From Acidobacteriota bacterium (GTDB taxonomy: Bacteria > Acidobacteriota > UBA4820 > DSQY01): DNA of 64,000 bases. Location: contig JAJYLT010000003.1 of the NCBI GenBank assembly GCA_021787565.1, forward strand, positions 79,775 through 143,774, written 5' to 3'. A model generated the notes under the pieces. That model did not search any database and was not told where the DNA came from. It saw only the letters and a list, made by a program, of their open reading frames with translations. Of this stretch, positions 6 to 23,181 are shown piece after piece (position 1 is the stretch's first letter; every line of letters starts with the position of its first letter). Position numbers and translations under genes: made by a program.

Positions 6-1265
6 TTGAACTGGGGAGGCTCGGCCTTGGACACTCGGGACTGCTTCGAAAGGGCCGCCGATCTTGTGGGCTTGCCTCCCGGCGTCAGGCGCCTCCTCGC
101 CCTGCCCTGCGACGAGCTGACCCTCAACTTTCCCGTCAAGATGGACGACGAGTCGGTGGAGACCTTCCGCGGGTTTCGCGTGCATCACAACGACGCCCTG
201 GGACCCTACCTGGGAGGGCTCCGCTATCACCCCTCGGTGACCCTCAAGGCTATGCGGACCCAGGCGGCGCAGCGGACCTGGCAGGCCGCCCTGGCGGGCC
301 TTCCCTTCGGGGGCTCCATGGGGGGCATCCAGCTGGATCCCTCCCGTCACACGCTTTCGGAGCTGGAGCGGATCACGCGCCGCTTCGTGTTCGCCCTGGG
401 GAACAACATCGGGCCGGACTACGACGTCCTCACGACGGAGGTCAACACGAACAGCCAGATCATGAGCTGGGTCCTGGACACCTACTTTTCCACGGTACCA
501 CCCCAGGAGAGAAACCGCGCCTTCCCGGTGGTCACCGGCAAGCCGCTGGAGGCGGGCGGACTCCCGGGGCGGAACCGGGCGGTGGGTCTGGGCATGGCCA
601 TGCTCATCGAACGCTGGGCGAGCGATCACGCCGTCGACCTCGCCGCCTCGACCTACACGCTGCAGGGATTCGGAACGGTGGGGTCCTCGGTGGCGCGGGT
701 CCTCCAGTCCAAAGGCGCCAGGCTACTGGCCGTAGAGGATGTGACCGGAGGTGTATTCCATCCGGGCGGCATCGATGCGGAAAACCTGTTCGCTTACTCC
801 AGACGGCGTTTCGGTCTGCGGGGCTACCCGAGGGCGACCGCGCTCAGTCACGAGGCCTTCCTGCGCACTCCGGCCACGATCTTCATTCCGGCCGCCCTGG
901 CCACGGGCTTCACGAGCGAGCTGTTGGAGCTCCTGGACGTGCGCCTCGTGGCCGAGGGGGCTTGCATCCTGACGGAACCGGGAACGGACGACGTGCTGAG
1001 GCGAAAGGGGACGGACCTCCTGCCCGACGTGCTCTGCACCGCAGGAGGAGCCACCGCCAGCTATTTCGAGTGGCTCCAGAACAAGCGCGGCGAAAGGTGG
1101 GAGCTCGAGGAGGTGGAGAAGCGTCTCCAGGACACGCTATACCGCGCCTATGACCGGGTGGCAAGGGCCTCCCAAGAGTTCGGCGTCGATTGGAGGACCA
1201 CTAGCGTGGCCCTCGCCCTGGAGGATCTGGAGGGGGTCTACAGGGACCGGGGATTCTTCCCCTGA
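6..1265 (+). CDS. Glu/Leu/Phe/Val dehydrogenase family protein (GDH-like paralog 1); probably 5'-truncated by the window edge or TTG-initiated
   Basis: 419 aa ORF with GDH-family hallmarks (GGLRYHP, GLPFGG, QGFGTVG Rossmann, SYFEWLQN). The canonical catalytic Lys of GG-x-K-GG is Met (GGSMGG), the catalytic Asp position is Glu (TTEVNT), and the Lys89/Lys113 equivalents appear to be L/Q. The frame is open to position 1. Confidence 0.85.
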   Translation: MNWGGSALDTRDCFERAADLVGLPPGVRRLLALPCDELTLNFPVKMDDESVETFRGFRVHHNDALGPYLGGLRYHPSVTLKAMRTQAAQRTWQAALAGLPFGGSMGGIQLDPSRHTLSELERITRRFVFALGNNIGPDYDVLTTEVNTNSQIMSWVLDTYFSTVPPQERNRAFPVVTGKPLEAGGLPGRNRAVGLGMAMLIERWASDHAVDLAASTYTLQGFGTVGSSVARVLQSKGARLLAVEDVTGGVFHPGGIDAENLFAYSRRRFGLRGYPRATALSHEAFLRTPATIFIPAALATGFTSELLELLDVRLVAEGACILTEPGTDDVLRRKGTDLLPDVLCTAGGATASYFEWLQNKRGERWELEEVEKRLQDTLYRAYDRVARASQEFGVDWRTTSVALALEDLEGVYRDRGFFP

Positions 1266-1278
1266 CGGGAGCCGTGCC

Positions 1279-2529
1279 ATGACGAGCTACGACGAAGCGC
1301 TCCGCCAGCTCAACCAAGCCGCCGAACGCATGGGCCTGGACCCGGACGTGCGCAAGATCCTTTCGCAGACCGCGAGTGAAATCACCGTGAATTTTCCCGT
1401 CAAGATGGACGACGGAGAGGTCCGCATGCTCACCGGCCACCTGGCACAGCACAACAACGTCCTCGGGCCGTTCGCCGGGGGGCTGCGCTATCAGGAGGCG
1501 GTGGACACGGACGACGTCAGGGCCCTGGCGATCCGGATGACCTGGAAACACGCGGTTCTCGGGCTGCCCTTCGGCGGCGCCATGGGCGGGGTGGACGTGG
1601 ACCCGTTACGCTGCTCTCCGGCCGAATTGGAGCGCACCACCCGTCGCTTCACCTTCGGCCTGGGCGGCAATATCGGTCCCGAGTACGGCGTGCTCTGCCC
1701 CGAATTGGGCACCAACGGACAGATCATGGCCTGGATTCTGGATACCTACGCCTCGACCATGTCGCCCCACGAGCGAAATCTCTGCGGCCACGTGGTCATG
1801 GGCAAGCCCGCGACCCTGGGAGGAAGCGCGGGGCGGGAGCAGGCGGCCGGCCAGGCCATCGTGATCATGCTCAATGAGTGGGCGCGGCACGAGCAGATGG
1901 ACCTGAGACAGGTGACCTTCCTCCTCCAGGGCTTTGGAGCCACAGGCTCGTGGGCGGCCCGTCTCCTGGCGGAGCGGGGAGCGCGCCTTCTGGCCGTGGA
2001 GGATGCCAGCGGCGCCATCGCCCATCCGGACGGCATCGATCCCGGCGACCTGGACTCCTATGCTCGCCAGCGCGGGGGCATCGAGGGCTACCCCAAGGCC
2101 TCCCCTACCGACCATGCCGGCTTCCTCTCCACCAGGGCGGACATCTTCATTCCCGCTTCACCGCAGAAGCCGGTCTCACGGGACCACGCCTCCACGCTGA
2201 GGGTCCGGGTCGTGGCCGAGGGGGCCGATTCCCTCACCGACCGCGAGACGGAGGCCCTTCTCCGGGAGAGAGGCATAGAGATTCTTCCGGACCTGCTCTG
2301 CCATTCGGGCGCCACCATCGTCTACTACTACGAATGGCTCCAAAACCGTAGAAGTGAGAGATGGGAGGCGGAGGAGGTCAACTCAAAGATGCGCCGCCTC
2401 CTCCTCTCGGTCTACGAAGAGGCCCGCGGCATCGCTTCGGAACTCCACACCGACCTGCGCTCGGCCGCGCTCATAGTGGGGCTCCGCAGGATCGAGACGG
2501 CCTATCTGAAGCGGGGTATCTTCCCCTGA
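1279..2529 (+). CDS. Glu/Leu/Phe/Val dehydrogenase family protein (GDH-like paralog 2)
   Basis: ATG at 1279 (MTSYDEALRQ), 14 nt after paralog 1. GDH-family fold motifs present. GGAMGG replaces GGxKGG, Glu replaces the catalytic Asp (CPELGT), and the Lys89 equivalent is Ala (GPFAGG); the Lys113 equivalent is retained (MTWK). Confidence 0.85.
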   Translation: MTSYDEALRQLNQAAERMGLDPDVRKILSQTASEITVNFPVKMDDGEVRMLTGHLAQHNNVLGPFAGGLRYQEAVDTDDVRALAIRMTWKHAVLGLPFGGAMGGVDVDPLRCSPAELERTTRRFTFGLGGNIGPEYGVLCPELGTNGQIMAWILDTYASTMSPHERNLCGHVVMGKPATLGGSAGREQAAGQAIVIMLNEWARHEQMDLRQVTFLLQGFGATGSWAARLLAERGARLLAVEDASGAIAHPDGIDPGDLDSYARQRGGIEGYPKASPTDHAGFLSTRADIFIPASPQKPVSRDHASTLRVRVVAEGADSLTDRETEALLRERGIEILPDLLCHSGATIVYYYEWLQNRRSERWEAEEVNSKMRRLLLSVYEEARGIASELHTDLRSAALIVGLRRIETAYLKRGIFP

Positions 2530-2701
2530 GGCGGGCCCGCGGGCAAAGTGAGTTCGTCAGGGAGCTTGGGGTGTCTGGCTCCCGTCCTCCCGGACTTTCC
2601 AAAGAAAGAACCCGCCGAGGAAAAAGAGCGGGGCCTCCTGCGGGGAACATTGGTTGGTTTCGCGGGGTCTCCAGACCTTTCTGCGTGGCCCTCCAGGGCC
2701 C

Positions 2702-2757
2702 TTGACACCCACTATATGTTGCGCTATATTACCCCTGCTTAGCTAAATATAGGGGTG
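2702..2757 (+). promoter_or_regulatory. sigma70-like promoter (TTGACA-N17-TATATT) overlapped by AT-rich NrdR-box-like palindromic half-sites upstream of nrdJ
   Basis: TTGACA at 2702-2707, 17 nt spacer, TATATT at 2725-2730. The inverted half-sites CACCCACTATAT (2707-2718) and ATATAGGGGTG (2746-2757) resemble NrdR boxes (CACtATAT/ATATaGtG). The AT-rich island is conspicuous in a ~67% GC context. Confidence 0.45.
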
Positions 2758-2831
2758 CTCGGGGGCATAAGCCCTTTGGGCACATGAACTTGGGATTCAG
2801 TGTCTCCACGAGAACATGGGAGGTCAGTCGG

Positions 2832-5800
2832 ATGGACACGCACAAGGGTGGCGGCCAGGCTGGCAGCACCGGCAACCGCAAGGTCACAGCCACGCCCCAG
2901 ATCAGCAATTCGAAGGATCCTTCGCCGCCGGACAATTCGCAGCCGCCAGAAGTCGGCCTGTCCACGGAGGCGCTCGTTCCGTTTCACCTGGATCGGCGGT
3001 TCACTTCTCCAGAGTGCGATCCGCTGGATGGTGCCGCCTACCAACGCCGGGCCTCCAAGATCATGAACACGGATGGGTCCACGGTGTTCGCCATGGAGAA
3101 CGCCGAGGTCCCCGCGGACTGGAGCCAGCTGGCCACGGACATCCTGATCAGCAAATACTTCCGCAAGGCCGGTGTGCCGGGCACGGGCCACGAGACCTCC
3201 ATCCGCCAGGTGATCCGCCGCATCGCCCATACTCTCAGGATCGAGGGTGAGAAGTTCGGGGGCTACTTCACGGACAAGGAGGAGGCCGATGTCTTCGAGG
3301 CCGAGCTCTCCCACCTGCTCCTGACCCAGAGGGGGGCATTCAATTCGCCCGTCTGGTTCAATCTGGGGCTCTGGCACGAATACGGGATCGAGGGGTCGGG
3401 CGGCGCCTACTACTGGAGCGCCGAGACCGGGCAGATCGAGGAGACGTCCAACGCCTATCAGCACCCCCAGTGCTCCGCGTGCTTCATCCAGAGCGTGGAC
3501 GACGACCTGATGAGCATCTTCCAGCTGGCCAAGAACGAGGCCCGGCTGTTCAAGTACGGATCGGGCACCGGCAGCAACTTCTCGCGGATCCGCTCCCGGG
3601 AAGAGAGGCTCTCCGGCGGGGGCACCTCATCGGGTCTGATGAGCTTTCTCGAGGTCCTGGATCGCGCCGCCGGCGCCACCAAGTCCGGCGGAACCACCCG
3701 GCGCGCCGCCAAGATGGTCTGCCTGGACATGGACCATCCCGAGGTAGAGGACTTCATCAACTGGAAGCGCCGGGAGGAGAACAAGGCGCGGGTGCTGGCC
3801 GAGGCGGGGATCGACCTGGACGATGCGGTGCACACCGTCTCGGGCCAGAACGCCAACAACTCGCTGCGCATCACCGACGCCTTCATGGAGGCCTACGAAA
3901 AGGACGGAGAGTGGACCACCACCTACCGGACCAGCGGAGAGCCCGCGCACACCCACCGGGCCCGTGATCTCATGCGCCAGATCGCCGTGGCCGCGTGGGA
4001 GTGCGGCGACCCGGGGCTGCAATTCGACAGCACCATCAACCGCTGGCACGCGTGCAAGGCCACCGACCGCATCCACGCCTCCAACCCTTGCTCCGAGTAC
4101 ATGTTCCTGGACGATTCGGCCTGCAACCTCGCCAGCCTGAACCTCATGAAGTTCCTGAATGAAGAGGGCGACTTCGACGTGGAGGGCTACAAGCACGCCG
4201 TGGGCATCTTCATCACCGCCCAGGAGATCCTGGTGGACCTCTCCTCCTACCCCACCGAGACCATCGCCAAGAACAGCCACGACTTCCGGCCCCTCGGCCT
4301 CGGCTACGCCAATCTCGGGACCCTCCTGATGGTCCTGGGCATCCCCTACGACAGTCCCAAGGCCTTCGCGTGGTGCGGCGCGCTCACCAGCCTCATGACC
4401 GGGCAGGCCTACCTGGTCTCCTCCCTGCTGGCCAAGCGCAAGGGCCCCTTCCCCGGCTATGCCAAGAACCGGGAATCCATGCTGGACGTCATCAAGATGC
4501 ACCGGGACGCCGGCCACAAGGTGGAGCTGGATTACCTCCCGGAGAGCCTCGGCCTCGCCAGCCGGCAGGTTTGGGACGACGCGCTGGTCTTCGGTCGTCA
4601 GTTCGGCTTCCGCAACGCCCAGACCACGGTGCTGGCTCCCACGGGAACCATCGGCCTGCTCATGGATTGCGATACCACCGGCATCGAGCCTGACTTCTCC
4701 CAGGTCAAGTTCAAGAAGCTGGCTGGCGGCGGCTACTTCAAGATCGTGAACCAGTCGGTGGAGCGCGCCCTGCACGCTCTCGGCTATCCCCCCGCCCAGA
4801 TCCAGGAGATGCTGCGGTATCTCGTGGGCACGGGGCAGCTGGCCGGCACTCCCCACATCCATCCAGCCAGCCTGATGACCAAGGGATTCACGGAGGAAGA
4901 GGTGGCTCGCGTGGAGAGCCAGCTCGGGCGGGTGGTGGACCTTCCTCAGGCCTTTTCCGCCTTCGTCCTGGGCGACGACTGCGTCCGGAGGCTGGGATTC
5001 ACCCCGGAGGAGGCCGGCAAGCCGGGCTTCAACGTGCTCGCCGCCCTCGGTTTCAGCGATGCCCAGATCGAGGAGGCTTCCGCCGTGGCCTGCGGCCACA
5101 TGACGCTGGAAGGCGCCCCCTACCTGAAGGAGGAGCACCTGCCCGTGTTCGACTGCGCCAACCGTTGCGGAAGGCACGGCAAGCGGTTCATCGCCCCCCT
5201 CGGCCACGTCAAGATGATGGCGGCGGCCCAGCCCTTCCTGTCCGGCGCCATCAGCAAGACGGTCAACCTGCCCGTCTCCATCATGCCGGAGGAAATCGAG
5301 CGGATCTACGTGGAGGGCTGGAAGCGCGGTCTGAAGGCCCTCGCCGTCTATAGGGACGGCTCCAAGGTCACCCAGCCCCTCTCGGACGCCTCCACCCAGA
5401 AGGCCGCCAAGACGGAGACGGCCTCGGCGCCGGCCCCCGTCGAACAGCTCTGGCGCACGCCGCTTCAGCGCCGCAGGCTGCCGAAAAAGCGCGACGGATT
5501 CACCCAGGAGGCGCGCGTAGGCGGACAGAAGGTCTACCTGCGGACGGGCGAGTACGCCGACGGCCGCCTGGGCGAGGTCTTCATCGACATGCACAAGGAG
5601 GGGGCCGCCTTCCGCTCCCTCATGAACTGCTTCGCCATCGCCATTTCGCTCGGCCTCCAGTACGGCGTTCCGCTGGAGGAGTACGTGGACTGCTTCACCT
5701 TCACGCGCTTCGAGCCCCAGGGGCCCGTCACGGACCACCCCAACATCAAATACGCCACCTCGGTCATCGACTACATCTTCCGAGTCCTGGGCATGGAGTA

Positions 5801-6089
5801 CCTGGGAAGGACCGACTTCGTGCAGGTGAAGCCGGACGAGCTCGAGAAGGCCCAGGCCGAGAAGACGCTGACCTCGCCCACGGCGAGCGCCACCGAGGTC
5901 GCCGCCGCGGAGAAGACCCTCTCCTCGCAGGTTCCAGTCTACAAGGCCGTCGGCGGGAACCCGCTCTCCAGCCACCTTTCGACCATGATGGGCGATGCCC
6001 CGTTCTGCAACATCTGCGGCCACATCACGGTGCGGAACGGTTCCTGCTACAAATGCCTGAACTGCGGCAACAGCCTAGGGTGCAGCTAG
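2832..6089 (+). CDS. nrdJ: adenosylcobalamin-dependent ribonucleoside-diphosphate/triphosphate reductase, class II
   Basis: About 1085 aa. Contains the class II RNR motifs [22 protein letters not shown] and [10 protein letters not shown], with a C-terminal Cys-rich zinc ribbon (CNICGH...CYKCLNCGN). Start chosen at ATG 2832, which follows a GGGAGG RBS; the ORF track starts at 2784. Confidence 0.9.
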
Positions 6090-6115
6090 ACATCCCGGTG
6101 GAAGGTCAATCGAAG

Positions 6116-6205: not shown

Positions 6206-7111
6206 TCAGCCCGAGAGCGGCTCCTCGACCTCCGGGCGGCGCATGGTCAACAAGGTCACGCTGATCACGACCACGGCCGCGCCCAGGGCCTGAACGGGAT
6301 AGAGCCTCTCCCCGAGCAGCAGCACCGCGAGCCCCGTGGCCACCACCGGAATCACGTTGGTGAAGGCGGCCACGATGGAGGCCTTCAGGTGGGCCAGCGA
6401 AACGTTCAGGAGCAGATAGGCAAGAAAGGAGCAGCCGATCCCGAGGTAAAGGACGGCCAGCCAGGCCCTGGGGCCGGCCTGCGGCATCCCCCGCGTTGAA
6501 AGATCCCAGAGGGCGAACGGCAGGTACATGGCGGCCGCGTAAAGGGCCTGCAGCCGCGTGATGGCGACGGCGTTGTAGCGCGAGAGCAGGCGGCGGGCCA
6601 GAACCGTGTAGACCGAGGCGGCGAAGGCCGCGGCCAGGATGAAACCGTTGCCCGCCAGGCTCCCGCCGAAGGCGCTTCTGAGCCCTCCCGCGGTGACCAG
6701 GAGGAATATGCCCCCAAGGGAGAGCAAGATGAGCAGCACCTCCGCCGCGACGATCCTGACCTTCAGCCAGAAGACTTCGAGAAGCAGGACGTAGATGGGA
6801 ATCGTGCAGATGAGGATGGCCGCCGTCGATGCGAGCGTTCGCTGGATGCCCATGGCCTCGAGGTAGAAATAAACTCCCGGCTCGAACAGGGCGAGGACCA
6901 GGATCTTCCAGTAGCCCGTCCGATCCACGGGACTGGCCTTCAGCCAGGGAGAGAAGACGAAAAAGACCGCCGCTCCGAGCAGGAAGCGCAGGAATATGAG
7001 CTCCGAAGGGGTGAAGGCGGAAAGCGCGATCTTGGTGCCCACGAAGGAGGCGCCGAAGAGAAGGGACATACCCACGAGGGCGGCCAGCGCCCCGGCCTTG
7101 GCGCCTCTCAT
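6206..7111 (-). CDS. EamA/DMT-family permease (10-TM drug/metabolite transporter)
   Basis: Hydrophobic ~300 aa protein with a duplicated EamA-like 5-TM architecture. ATG at 7111 overlaps the queC stop (ATGA); the ORF track extends to 7255, but that upstream part is Arg/Pro-rich junk. Confidence 0.75.
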   Translation of the reverse strand: MRGAKAGALAALVGMSLLFGASFVGTKIALSAFTPSELIFLRFLLGAAVFFVFSPWLKASPVDRTGYWKILVLALFEPGVYFYLEAMGIQRTLASTAAILICTIPIYVLLLEVFWLKVRIVAAEVLLILLSLGGIFLLVTAGGLRSAFGGSLAGNGFILAAAFAASVYTVLARRLLSRYNAVAITRLQALYAAAMYLPFALWDLSTRGMPQAGPRAWLAVLYLGIGCSFLAYLLLNVSLAHLKASIVAAFTNVIPVVATGLAVLLLGERLYPVQALGAAVVVISVTLLTMRRPEVEEPLSG

Positions 7112-7917
7112 GAGGCCTGCGTCAGCGCCCGAAGCAGCACGGACAGCCGCCTCACCCGCTCTCGGGCGGCTTCCCTGCCGAAGGAGACGGGCCTTCCGTA
7201 GGCAATGGGGTCCTGGATGCCGGCCTGCTCGAAACCTCGGAGCCTCAAGGCGCACGAATCACAAGCCCCGCAGGCGAAGTCGTTTCGGACGTAGCACGAC
7301 CACGTGGCCTCCAGCGGCAGACCCATCTGGGTCGCCGCCTGGACGATCTGCGCCTTCGTCATGTCCACCAGGGGGGCCCGGACCTGGATCCCGCTTTCCG
7401 GCTTGGTCCCCTCGGTCACGAGCCGGTTGAAGGCTTCGATGAACGGCGGCCGGCAGTCCGGATAACCGGAGGAGTCCTGGGAGACGGCGCCGTAGTAGAC
7501 CCGCCTCGCGCCCAAGACCTCGGCCCATCCGACGGCCATGGAGAGCAGGACCGCGTTCCGGAAGGGCACGTAAGTCACGGGGATCCCCTTCGAATCCAGA
7601 TCGGCGGCGGGCACGGCGACCTTGGAACTGGTGAGCGCGGAACCGCCCGCGAGGGCGAAGAAGTTCGTGTGAACGACCAGACGGCGCTGCTCCGGCACTG
7701 CAAGGAAGTCCGCAATCCTCAGGAAGGCCCGGTATTCGGCCTCTTCGGTGCGCTGTCCATAATTGAAGTGGATCAGGGCCAACGCGAGGCCATCCCGAAG
7801 CGCCACGCCGGCCGCCGTGAGGGAGTCCATGCCCCCGCTCAGGAGGACCACGGCCATAGGCGCTTCGGGGTCGGCAGTCGGAACCTTCGGGGAGCCCGTG
7901 AGCTGATCGACATCCAT
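7108..7917 (-). CDS. queC: 7-cyano-7-deazaguanine synthase
   Basis: SGGMDS PP-loop and C-terminal CGACDSC zinc motif. An alternative internal start at 7857 (MAVVLLSGG) is possible. Confidence 0.85.
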   Translation of the reverse strand: MDVDQLTGSPKVPTADPEAPMAVVLLSGGMDSLTAAGVALRDGLALALIHFNYGQRTEEAEYRAFLRIADFLAVPEQRRLVVHTNFFALAGGSALTSSKVAVPAADLDSKGIPVTYVPFRNAVLLSMAVGWAEVLGARRVYYGAVSQDSSGYPDCRPPFIEAFNRLVTEGTKPESGIQVRAPLVDMTKAQIVQAATQMGLPLEATWSCYVRNDFACGACDSCALRLRGFEQAGIQDPIAYGRPVSFGREAARERVRRLSVLLRALTQAS

Positions 7918-8027
7918 TGCGCGGCCTCAAAAGGTGCGTGACGGATTCTTCCGGAGGCGCCCACGAATGGCGCCTGGCGCTGCCCGTCATTGTAGTTCCG
8001 ATTCCACCGACCAGGAATCCCCCGTCC

Positions 8028-8732
8028 TCAGACTCCCCGCTTGTTGCCCCAGAGGACCTTGTGGAGCTGGACCTGAAGGCGCACCTCGAGGCGGTCCCCG
8101 ACGATCCACTCCGCCAGCGCCGCCGGATCGAGAAGCCCCCAGACCGGTGAGAAGAGCACACCGGCGGGGCCGGGGAGATGGTGGCGGGCCAGGAAATCGA
8201 CCGCCCAGAGGTAATCCTCGCGGGATGAGAGAACGAACTTGAGCACATCCTTCCGATCCAGCTCGCCCAAGACGGGGAGCTGAAAGGAGCCGCCCTCGCC
8301 GCTGGCCGGAGCCTTTACATCCACCACCTTGAGCACCTCGCCGGGCAGGCAGCCCAGATCATAGGCGCCGTTGGTCTCGATGGAGACGGCGCGGCCGGCG
8401 TCGAGAAGGGCCCGACAGAGCGCCGGAGTGGCCGCCTGGGCCATGGGCTCCCCTCCCGTGACCAGAACCCGCCGGATCTCGTGAGAGGCTACCCGGCGGA
8501 CCACCTCTCCCAGTGCCACCCGCTGGCCCTTGAAGAAGGCGAAGGCGCTGTCGCAGTAGCTGCACCGCAGATTGCAGCCGGTCAGGCGCACGAGGACGGT
8601 CGGGTACCCCTGCTCGGGCCCCTCGCCCTGGACGGAGGCATACAGCTCGTTGAGCAGCAGGGTGGGCTCCGTCTGCGGACGGTTGAGGTAGCGCTCACCG
8701 CCCACGGCCTGAGGGGCTTCTCGATGGCTCAT
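8028..8732 (-). CDS. queE: 7-carboxy-7-deazaguanine synthase (radical SAM)
   Basis: Radical SAM motif CNLRCSYCDS and QueE-like N-terminus (ELYASVQGEG). Its start overlaps the queD stop. Confidence 0.85.
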   Translation of the reverse strand: MSHREAPQAVGGERYLNRPQTEPTLLLNELYASVQGEGPEQGYPTVLVRLTGCNLRCSYCDSAFAFFKGQRVALGEVVRRVASHEIRRVLVTGGEPMAQAATPALCRALLDAGRAVSIETNGAYDLGCLPGEVLKVVDVKAPASGEGGSFQLPVLGELDRKDVLKFVLSSREDYLWAVDFLARHHLPGPAGVLFSPVWGLLDPAALAEWIVGDRLEVRLQVQLHKVLWGNKRGV

Positions 8733-9094
8733 GCGTCCTCGTCCTCGAAGTACGAGGCCTCGGACGTGTCGGTCTCGTAGACATCGACCCGCGTCACGGG
8801 GGCCGCCGCCGAGAGGACCTCGTAGAGGTGGCGGGCGATGTTCTCCGCCGTGGGGTTCAGACGGTCGAAGGGGGGGGTCTCGTTCAGGTAATTATGATCG
8901 AAGGGCTCCAGCGCGCGCTGGGTGAGCTCCTTCAGCTTGCGGAAATCCATGACCATGCCCAGGCCGTCCAGCTCCTTGCGCCTGGCCACCACCTCGACGC
9001 GCCAGTTGTGCCCGTGGAGCCTCTCGCAATTCCCCGGGTAATCCTCGACCCTGTGGGCCGCGGCGAAATGCCTCACGATCTTGACCTCGTACAT
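8729..9094 (-). CDS. queD: 6-carboxy-5,6,7,8-tetrahydropterin synthase
   Basis: 121 aa PTPS-family protein with the CxxxHGH motif (CERLHGHNW). Confidence 0.85.
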   Translation of the reverse strand: MYEVKIVRHFAAAHRVEDYPGNCERLHGHNWRVEVVARRKELDGLGMVMDFRKLKELTQRALEPFDHNYLNETPPFDRLNPTAENIARHLYEVLSAAAPVTRVDVYETDTSEASYFEDEDA

Positions 9095-23104: not shown

Positions 23105-23181
23105 TGGTCGGGACGACTGGATTTGAACCAGCGACCCCTTGCACCCCAAGCAAGTGCGCTACCAGGCTGCGCCACGTCCCG
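23105..23181 (-). tRNA. tRNA-Pro (anticodon GGG), CCA encoded
   Basis: 77 nt cloverleaf: acceptor CGGGACG/CGTCCCG, D-arm GCGC-AGCCTGGTA-GCGC, anticodon stem CTTGC/GCAAG with loop TTGGGGT (G37), T-arm GCTGG-TTCAAAT-CCAGT. Close to E. coli tRNA-Pro. Confidence 0.9.

Follow-up and report, generated by a model that had tools for sequence, protein, structure and literature searches.

Can two glutamate dehydrogenases still be of use to a cell once both have lost the lysine that drives the reaction? This question is raised by a 64,000-nt stretch of contig JAJYLT010000003.1 from an Acidobacteriota bacterium (assembly GCA_021787565.1, positions 79,775 to 143,774 of the forward strand), the whole of which is referred to here as the window. 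At its start lie two adjacent open reading frames (ORFs) of the glutamate dehydrogenase (GDH) family, ORF1 (27..1265, + strand, 412 amino acids) and ORF2 (1279..2529, + strand, 416 amino acids). A first-pass annotation, made without database searches, had reported that the catalytic Lys is replaced by Met and the catalytic Asp by Glu in both, and both replacements were confirmed by alignment to T. maritima GDH (1b26) and 219 canonical homologues. The explanation that we favour, and to which we assign about an even chance, is that ORF1 and ORF2 are pseudoenzymes that would assemble into a non-catalytic hetero-oligomer and regulate glutamate metabolism via a catalytic partner. A regulatory GDH paralog devoid of the catalytic Lys is already known from Thermus; new here are that both tandem genes are dead, that the pocket is remodelled further, and that the catalytic partner would be encoded outside the operon. 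GDH stands at the branch point between the metabolism of carbon and that of nitrogen; its regulation is poorly understood in most bacteria outside the model organisms. The pair described here represents the extreme case, in which a whole oligomer may be non-catalytic yet strongly conserved, and thus lends itself well to the question of which signals a pseudo-dehydrogenase hexamer responds to and which partners it controls.

Catalytic residues and scaffold of the two paralogs

The GDH domain families PF02812 and PF00208 are matched by both proteins over their whole length with E values of 1e-43 to 1e-47 and scores of 145.7 and 154.7 bits for ORF1 and 146.1 and 160.5 bits for ORF2 against cut-offs of 25.3 and 23.4. 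The best solved relative of each is T. maritima GDH, which likewise aligns end to end (E 9e-89 for ORF1 and 2e-90 for ORF2), and the two are 46-47% identical to each other (47% by BLASTP). An AlphaFold2 model computed for ORF1 (predicted local distance difference test 86, predicted template modelling score 0.88) was compared with the PDB by Foldseek, and the top matches are all GDHs with template modelling (TM) scores of 0.85-0.93, the 50 best listed being GDH-family chains with TM scores of 0.76-0.93. The scores against the NCBIfam GDH models stay below the cut-offs (316 bits versus 750 for ORF1, 348 versus 620 for ORF2), which is a weak criterion by itself, since the canonical GDH next to the pair in a close relative (locus L001) also falls short (484 versus 750); the best non-GDH match in NCBIfam is ScyB with 33 bits against a cut-off of 600. 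Together with their homologues, referred to below as type 1 (ORF1-like) and type 2 (ORF2-like), the two proteins lie within the GDH subfamily that carries the TYLSTVPPQERN insertion and an RGIFP C-terminus, the canonical members of which are 53-57% identical to ORF1 and ORF2. A switch to the specificity of leucine or phenylalanine dehydrogenase was considered as well: the Leu found at the K89 position of ORF1 resembles leucine dehydrogenase, but the catalytic Lys is gone, and the positions aligned with the lysines of the Leu/Phe/Val/Trp dehydrogenases (K80 and K68 of leucine dehydrogenase) are Met in both ORFs, and Gln in ORF1, so that this candidate was rejected.

In GDH, K89, K113 and S380 (C. 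symbiosum numbering, used throughout) are the ligands of the substrate carboxylates, K125 is the general base and D165 the catalytic Asp. Residues were mapped by alignment to 1b26 and 194-219 canonical homologues; the three lysines and the Asp are present in 219 of 219 of these. In ORF1, Met98 occupies the position of K125 (GGSMGG; ATG, 318..320), Glu138 that of D165 (GAG, 438..440), Leu62 that of the side-chain-carboxyl-binding K89 (CTG, 210..212) and Gln86 that of the alpha-carboxyl-binding K113 (CAG, 282..284). ORF2 has Met102 at K125 (GGAMGG; ATG, 1582..1584), Glu142 at D165 (GAA, 1702..1704) and Ala66 at K89, while K113 is kept as Lys90, all of these codons being on the + strand. The earlier assignment of Leu and Gln to the K89 and K113 positions of ORF1, and of Ala with a retained K113 to ORF2, is thus borne out by the alignment. 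Further replacements, at the substrate and nicotinamide sites, affect the Asn of EGAN (Cys in ORF1, Asp in ORF2), of NAGG (Thr and His, respectively) and of GFGN (Thr and Ala), and the S380 equivalent is retained as Ser in ORF1 and is Tyr in ORF2. All of these positions (K89, K113, K125, D165, the three Asn and S380) are invariant in the canonical set. The motif SYFEWLQN, which had been ascribed to both proteins, stands for ORF1, but reads YYYEWLQN in ORF2.

The scaffold around the pocket is maintained. About 70 of the positions invariant among canonical GDHs are unchanged, including glycines, prolines, R66, R118/R119, D151, K172, R182, the glycines of GxGxxG, D238, E310, E348-W349, R390 and R408-G409. 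Both ORFs keep the GxGxxG motif of the dinucleotide fold and the acidic E-D after beta-2 (E237-D238), although all three Asn of GFGN, EGAN and NAGG are replaced. Across 26 members of the family 62 columns are invariant, among them R118/R119, D151, K172, the C-terminal R-G-x-F-P and the first two glycines of GxGxxG (the third is nearly so). A different Lys or Asp taking over the catalytic positions, which would speak against the loss of activity, is not seen: the alignment of type 1 and type 2 members revealed no compensating Lys or Asp, and the only new basic residues are R82 of type 2 and K407 near the C-terminal tail. As far as can be judged from these sequences, ORF1 and ORF2 are not expected to perform canonical oxidative deamination.

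Co-inheritance of the pair and recurrence of Lys-less paralogs

The first-pass annotation had taken the ATG codons as an argument against a sequencing error. Met has a single codon, so that the codon carries no information on this point; the real argument is that close relatives share the same substitutions in seven assemblies made independently of each other (L001-L004, L028, L031 and L050). In the three of them that bear the label Acidobacteriota, the ORF1 orthologue is 96-98% identical to ORF1. Comparison with close-relative orthologues by the Nei-Gojobori method (in-house script) gave ratios of nonsynonymous to synonymous substitution rates (dN/dS) of 0.069-0.082 for ORF1 and 0.147-0.159 for ORF2, as compared with 0.031-0.055 for the neighbouring canonical GDH of the relatives. 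Both genes are therefore clearly under purifying selection, although it is two- to four-fold weaker than that acting on the canonical neighbour. The proposal of a pseudo-enzyme or regulatory pair without canonical deamination is supported by the combination of lost catalytic residues, about 70 retained scaffold positions, purifying selection, the lack of a replacement Lys and the loss of the catalytic Lys in GdhA of Thermus as well.

Protein searches returned 26 Lys-less clusters among 220 hits, and these split into type 1 and type 2; residues were counted in 15 type 1 and 20 type 2 sequences, i.e. 35 non-redundant family members from several phyla. Type 1 is characterized by Leu or Met at K89 (Leu in 12/15), Gln at K113 (15/15), Met at K125 (14/15, with Val in the remaining one) and either Asp (8/15) or Glu (7/15) at D165. 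Type 2 has Lys at K113, Met at K125 (18/20; Val in 2/20, including the L001 orthologue), Glu at D165 (20/20), and variable residues at K89 (A/V/M/T/N/R/S) and S380 (Y/N/H/F). Even ORF2 orthologues that are 90-95% identical vary at the Lys position (M/V), within GGxMGG (G/A), at the third Gly of GxGxxG (G/S), after EGA (A/S), and in the NAGG...S segment (A/D and H/Y). The 90%-identical orthologue at L001 11253-12503, for example, has Val at the position of the catalytic Lys and His at that of S380. On the evidence of these alignments, the exact residue at the two sites is not strictly constrained in the lineage of ORF2 and L001.

In every locus with DNA context (L001-L011, L028, L031 and L050) the type 2 gene directly follows the type 1 gene, and a neighbour-joining tree shows a roughly matching branching order for the two clades; this tree was built without bootstrap or maximum-likelihood check, so that the branching of types 1 and 2 relative to the canonical sequences is provisional. 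The two paralog types are co-inherited as a bicistronic pair across several lineages. As to whether Lys-to-Met homologues always occur in tandem, this is the case for types 1 and 2 in every locus found, but not for the copies from Chloroflexota, which stand alone (see below). A more divergent dead pair is present in a metagenome-assembled genome (MAG) of Acidobacteriota (L051 2485-5095; signatures Y-S-M-D and A-S-M-..-E); its second gene is divided into two ORFs (3542-4252 and 4256-5095), either by a frameshift or stop of the assembly or because it is a real pseudogene.

A degenerate DNA pattern for P-F-G-[GA]-x-M-[GA] was scanned over one genome per species and found 52 real loci and one chance match. 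In Planctomycetota (~26 loci, within L014-L064) a canonical GDH gene is directly followed, often with an overlap, by a Lys-to-Met paralog of the signature L-K-M-D (e.g., L019 3516-4823 canonical and 4810-6111 Lys-to-Met), and the live and dead clades are sisters in the neighbour-joining tree. Four loci from Acidobacteriota hold pairs of two dead genes, and about ten from Chloroflexota hold a lone dead copy with room on both sides. The lone homologues of Chloroflexota/Limnocylindria (L012, L021, L023, L030 and L046) show the signature T/Y-K-M-D, GFGR and Gly at S380, and no second GDH gene lies within several kb on either side. In L048, L053, L054, L057 and L062 (signature KKMD) the Lys-to-Met change is the sole deviation from the canonical signature, and these genes may have been inactivated recently, may encode regulatory paralogs or may reflect errors in a single base. 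In a search without bias toward Met, the family profile was run against 1.84 billion cluster representatives (50% identity) and the best 150 were examined: 125 are canonical and 17, about a tenth, carry A, M, Q, S, C, I or R in place of the Lys, while several others have lost K89 only. The Lys, which had been called universally conserved, is so among canonical enzymes, but not in the family as a whole. Taken together, the 52 loci of the pattern scan and the 17 Lys-less sequences among the 150 nearest representatives indicate that Lys-less GDH paralogs are recurrent in bacteria, where they have arisen independently at least four times and occur in three genomic layouts.

The tandem of Planctomycetota resembles ORF1/ORF2 in that the genes are tightly linked and, in the dead paralog, Met stands at the position of the catalytic Lys and Leu at that of K89; likewise, the S380 equivalent (Ala in Planctomycetota), the GFGN Asn and the T186 equivalent are lost. 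By contrast, its upstream gene is live and sister to the dead one, and D165 and K113 are kept, and the Lys-to-Met change has a separate origin from that in ORF1/ORF2. Literature searches found no description of this tandem, nor of any Lys-to-Met or pseudo-GDH paralogs beyond Thermus. Since annotation labels Lys-less paralogs as "glutamate dehydrogenase" throughout, the metabolic reconstructions made for MAGs from Acidobacteriota, Planctomycetota and Chloroflexota are inflated.

Possible functions and partners of the pair

In the explanation that we favour, ORF1 and ORF2 would assemble together into a GDH-like hetero-hexamer that keeps the oligomer scaffold and the inter-subunit site for hydrophobic amino acids (leucine) of the Thermus GDH. 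Such a hexamer could act as a ligand-sensing regulatory particle for glutamate or nitrogen metabolism by binding to a catalytic partner, which would probably be whichever glutamate enzyme adjoins the pair in the given lineage: the canonical GDH two genes upstream in the Acidobacteriota-like genomes, an E. coli-type GDH, or a glutamate-synthase-like cluster. The strictly conserved Gln86 of type 1, Glu at D165 and Arg82 of type 2, the alpha-carboxylate Lys kept in ORF2 and an NAD domain that evolves no faster, in relative terms, than that of canonical enzymes speak for some specific binding, and can be read as ligand sensing without turnover.

The neighbouring genes of the relatives point in this direction. 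In L001, L028, L031 and L050 the order is canonical GDH, a PPDK_N ATP-grasp protein of 918 amino acids, type 1, type 2 and ribonucleotide reductase. The canonical GDH of all four Acidobacteriota-like relatives (5485-6771 in L001) lies ~3 kb upstream on the same strand, two genes away, and has intact catalytic residues, yet is only 31-32% identical to ORF1/ORF2. In L009 two PPDK_N proteins, an E. coli-type GDH, a GAF histidine kinase and a sigma-54 activator precede the pair, and a sigma-54 activator also lies ahead of it in L005. A NuoE / NuoF-GltD / ferredoxin / Glu_synthase cluster lies directly upstream of the pair in L006 and in L008, which stems from a MAG with the label Planctomycetota, and in L006-L008 no GDH adjoins the pair. 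Across the loci the pair is thus the sole constant, with enzymes that make or break down glutamate and nitrogen-type regulators as the recurring neighbours. The PPDK_N protein (918-984 amino acids; L001 7046-9802, L009 1630-4584 and 6378-8504, L013 1-1752) adjoins GDH genes in two lineages. It carries a central PPDK_N ATP-grasp domain, a phospho-histidine swivel domain not being detectable in it, and its N-terminal ~125 residues are homologous to a domain that is present twice in the neighbouring GAF histidine kinase; this segment looks like an unannotated sensor domain tied to GDH loci.

The closest precedent is the hetero-hexameric GDH of T. thermophilus (PDB 3AOE), in which GdhA, itself without catalytic activity, serves as the regulatory subunit that responds to leucine within a GdhA4GdhB2 hexamer (PMC9570180; bioRxiv 10.1101/2025.10.31.685773). 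The GdhB sequence was rebuilt from the PDB alignment, and an exact match then led to the gdhA/gdhB locus (L065). There, gdhA (2732-3991) reads LPFGGAAGG, so that the catalytic Lys is Ala, with K89, K113 and D165 kept, and gdhB (4001-5275), ten bases further downstream, is fully canonical. Like ORF1 and ORF2, the two are tandem paralogs on the same strand with a full-length Lys-less member, at a similar divergence (45% identity between GdhA and GdhB, 46% here), and TRR[YF], [ML]DTY and the C-terminal R-G-x-[YF]-P are found in all four proteins. ORF1/ORF2 indeed have the residues named for the leucine site between the subunits, namely R135 of TRRY, the MDTY Asp and R-G-x-Y-P at the C-terminus, and these are invariant in 26 family members. 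However, the partner GdhB is canonical, whereas both tandem genes are dead here; ORF1/ORF2 use Met instead of Ala and lose K89, D165 and, in ORF1, K113; and they retain the E-D after beta-2, where GdhA has lost the acidic residue (AVAT). With 34-36% identity, GdhA and ORF1/ORF2 belong to separate, distant lineages. The precedent of Thermus, invoked already by the first-pass annotation, therefore holds in that GdhA too lacks the catalytic Lys, but with neither gene intact the pair is not simply another GdhA/GdhB. Unlike the loci described here, gdhA-gdhB adjoins genes of proline catabolism (Pro_dh and Aldedh): within L065 217-5275 it is found directly downstream of the genes for proline dehydrogenase and an aldehyde dehydrogenase, which a GntR regulator precedes, so that the Thermus hetero-GDH sits in a proline-to-glutamate catabolic cluster.

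Docking of a GDH hexamer on another enzyme also has a precedent. B. subtilis GudB forms a hexamer that docks on the glutamate synthase GltAB in a "counter-enzyme" complex (PDB 7mfm; bioRxiv 10.1101/2021.04.12.439528), and the dead pair of L006 and that of L008 are each located directly 3' of a glutamate-synthase-like cluster. GudB differs in being an active homo-hexamer and itself the regulated party, and the glutamate-synthase genes of L006/L008 differ from GltAB in comprising a NuoE/NuoF-GltD fusion and a Glu_synthase domain protein of 527 amino acids. The principle of a dead paralog serving as regulator is moreover known from different protein families: ADLP of Thermus, a Lys-less homologue of alanine dehydrogenase, senses NAD+ and regulates an unrelated CoA transferase (bioRxiv 10.1101/2025.10.31.685773), and a trypanosomatid paralog of deoxyhypusine synthase that has lost its catalytic Lys is kept as a regulatory partner (PMC3663545). 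As the example of ADLP shows, the target of a dead dehydrogenase can lie outside its own protein family.

Several points weigh against a non-catalytic regulatory pair with an adjoining glutamate enzyme as partner. The window begins at ORF1, so that the upstream neighbours (GDH and PPDK_N) are seen only in the relatives. There, an extended -10 promoter serves the pair alone, and hairpins lie between it and the upstream genes; being transcribed apart from its neighbours, it is linked to them by adjacency, not as an operon. The residues of the leucine site are equally invariant in canonical GDHs and thus do not discriminate, and their retention could be purely structural. The hetero-oligomer itself we infer from co-inheritance and from the precedents. 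Furthermore, some replacements are strictly conserved (Gln86 in 15/15 type 1, Glu at D165 in 20/20 type 2, Met at the Lys in more than 90%, R82 in 17/20 type 2), and such non-random replacements would be compatible as well with a specific site, newly acquired, for a ligand or substrate. Finally, the ratio of divergence between domains II and I is 1.24-1.25 in all groups, i.e. relative to the oligomerization domain the NAD domain evolves no faster than it does in canonical GDHs, so that there is no sign that cofactor binding as a whole has been given up. A faster decay of the NAD domain, for which this ratio served as the test, is thus not seen.

A further possibility is a free-standing, all-dead hexamer that has ceased to regulate a homologous GDH inside a mixed hexamer, has been repurposed as a sensor of amino acids or nucleotides and docks on non-homologous partners, such as glutamate synthase, the PPDK_N protein or a transcription factor. 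We consider this possible, although with distinctly less than even confidence; if true, the all-dead hexamer would be an unrecognized class of nitrogen-status regulator in Acidobacteriota and in MAGs labelled Planctomycetota. Docking of a dead-only hexamer on its partner is ranked slightly above mixed hexamers of the Thermus type, because the identity to the neighbouring GDH is as low as 31-32%, because this neighbour is of another class in L009, and because glutamate-synthase genes take its place in L006/L008.

In the strict form of the Thermus model ORF1 and/or ORF2 would mix in one hexamer with an intact GDH, either the upstream canonical one or one of the same subfamily encoded elsewhere in the genome, tune its activity and confer allosteric activation by leucine or other hydrophobic amino acids. 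The GdhA4GdhB2 hexamer with its Lys-less subunit (PMC9570180) shows that such mixing occurs, the live and dead tandem of sister clades in ~26 Planctomycetota genomes shows it to be a recurrent design, and both the conserved leucine-site residues and the canonical GDH ~3 kb upstream on the same strand in 4/4 Acidobacteriota-like relatives would fit. However, the identity to this upstream GDH (31-32%) is well below the 45% between GdhA and GdhB and the 44% within the Planctomycetota pairs, the neighbouring GDH is of E. coli type in L009 and absent next to the pair in L006-L008, and the one constant partner of type 1 is type 2, so that this model, too, has clearly less than an even chance.

That the two genes encode neofunctionalized enzymes is improbable. 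In this case the remodelled pocket (Met, Glu, Leu/Ala and Gln) would run another NAD(P)-dependent reaction without a general-base Lys, perhaps as a heteromer, for instance one that reduces a pre-formed cyclic imine or turns a 2-oxo acid into a 2-hydroxy acid. A different chemistry, which the first-pass annotation had also left open, could draw on the retained GxGxxG and E237-D238, on the strict conservation of the replacements Q86, E138/E142 and M98/M102, on the K113 equivalent of ORF2, and on an NAD domain that is not evolving relatively faster. Yet active-site and cofactor positions drift among ORF2 orthologues that are 90-95% identical, the variable K89 and S380 positions of type 2 leave no defined side-chain pocket, and the Asn of EGAN and of NAGG are lost in both ORFs. 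Literature searches found no ELFV-family enzyme lacking the catalytic Lys, and to our knowledge none is known.

Decaying remnants or a sequencing or assembly error can practically be dismissed. The step from Lys (AAG) to Met (ATG) is indeed a single-base change, and some of the scattered KKMD GDHs that differ from the canonical enzyme at the Lys alone could be errors or recent inactivations, but at the ORF1/ORF2 locus both possibilities are refuted by the seven independent assemblies, by substitutions shared among the 35 non-redundant family members from several phyla, and by intact, full-length frames with dN/dS of 0.07-0.16 and more than ten co-ordinated substitutions.

Transcription signals and downstream genes

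ORF1 most likely starts with TTG at position 27, since the homologous TTG begins the gene call in the 95%-identical relative L001; the mechanical alternative would be the TTG at position 6. A Shine-Dalgarno-like GGGGAGG (13..19, + strand) can be read from the sequence 7 nt 5' of this start, and a second one, GGGAG (1267..1271, + strand), lies ahead of the ATG start of ORF2 inside the spacer, which measures 13 nt and not 14 nt as given before. Both frames are intact and full-length and lie on the same strand, no promoter-like site was found between them, and the next gene has its own sigma-70 promoter, so that ORF1 and ORF2 look like a bicistronic operon. This promoter (TTGACA-17-TATATT, 2702..2730, + strand; 11/12 matches, with 0.2 expected in shuffles) belongs to the gene of a class II ribonucleotide reductase (2784-6089), which follows ORF2; the GDH-like operon ends ahead of this promoter and does not include it. 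Upstream of the type 1 genes a sigma-54 (-24/-12) promoter was sought because NtrC-type activators adjoin the pair in several lineages, but only extended -10, sigma-70-like elements were found instead. A search for riboswitches and other known RNAs in the long GC-rich leader of the relatives and in the window yielded tRNAs only, with one tRNA gene in the window (23108-23181, - strand).

The promoter at 2702-2730 overlaps A/T-rich CTATAT/ATATAG half-palindromes (window 2700-2780) that appear to resemble NrdR boxes. Beyond the reductase, an EamA transporter and a queC-queE-queD cluster for the synthesis of 7-cyano-7-deazaguanine are encoded on the - strand (6206-9094), in the same gene order as in L001.

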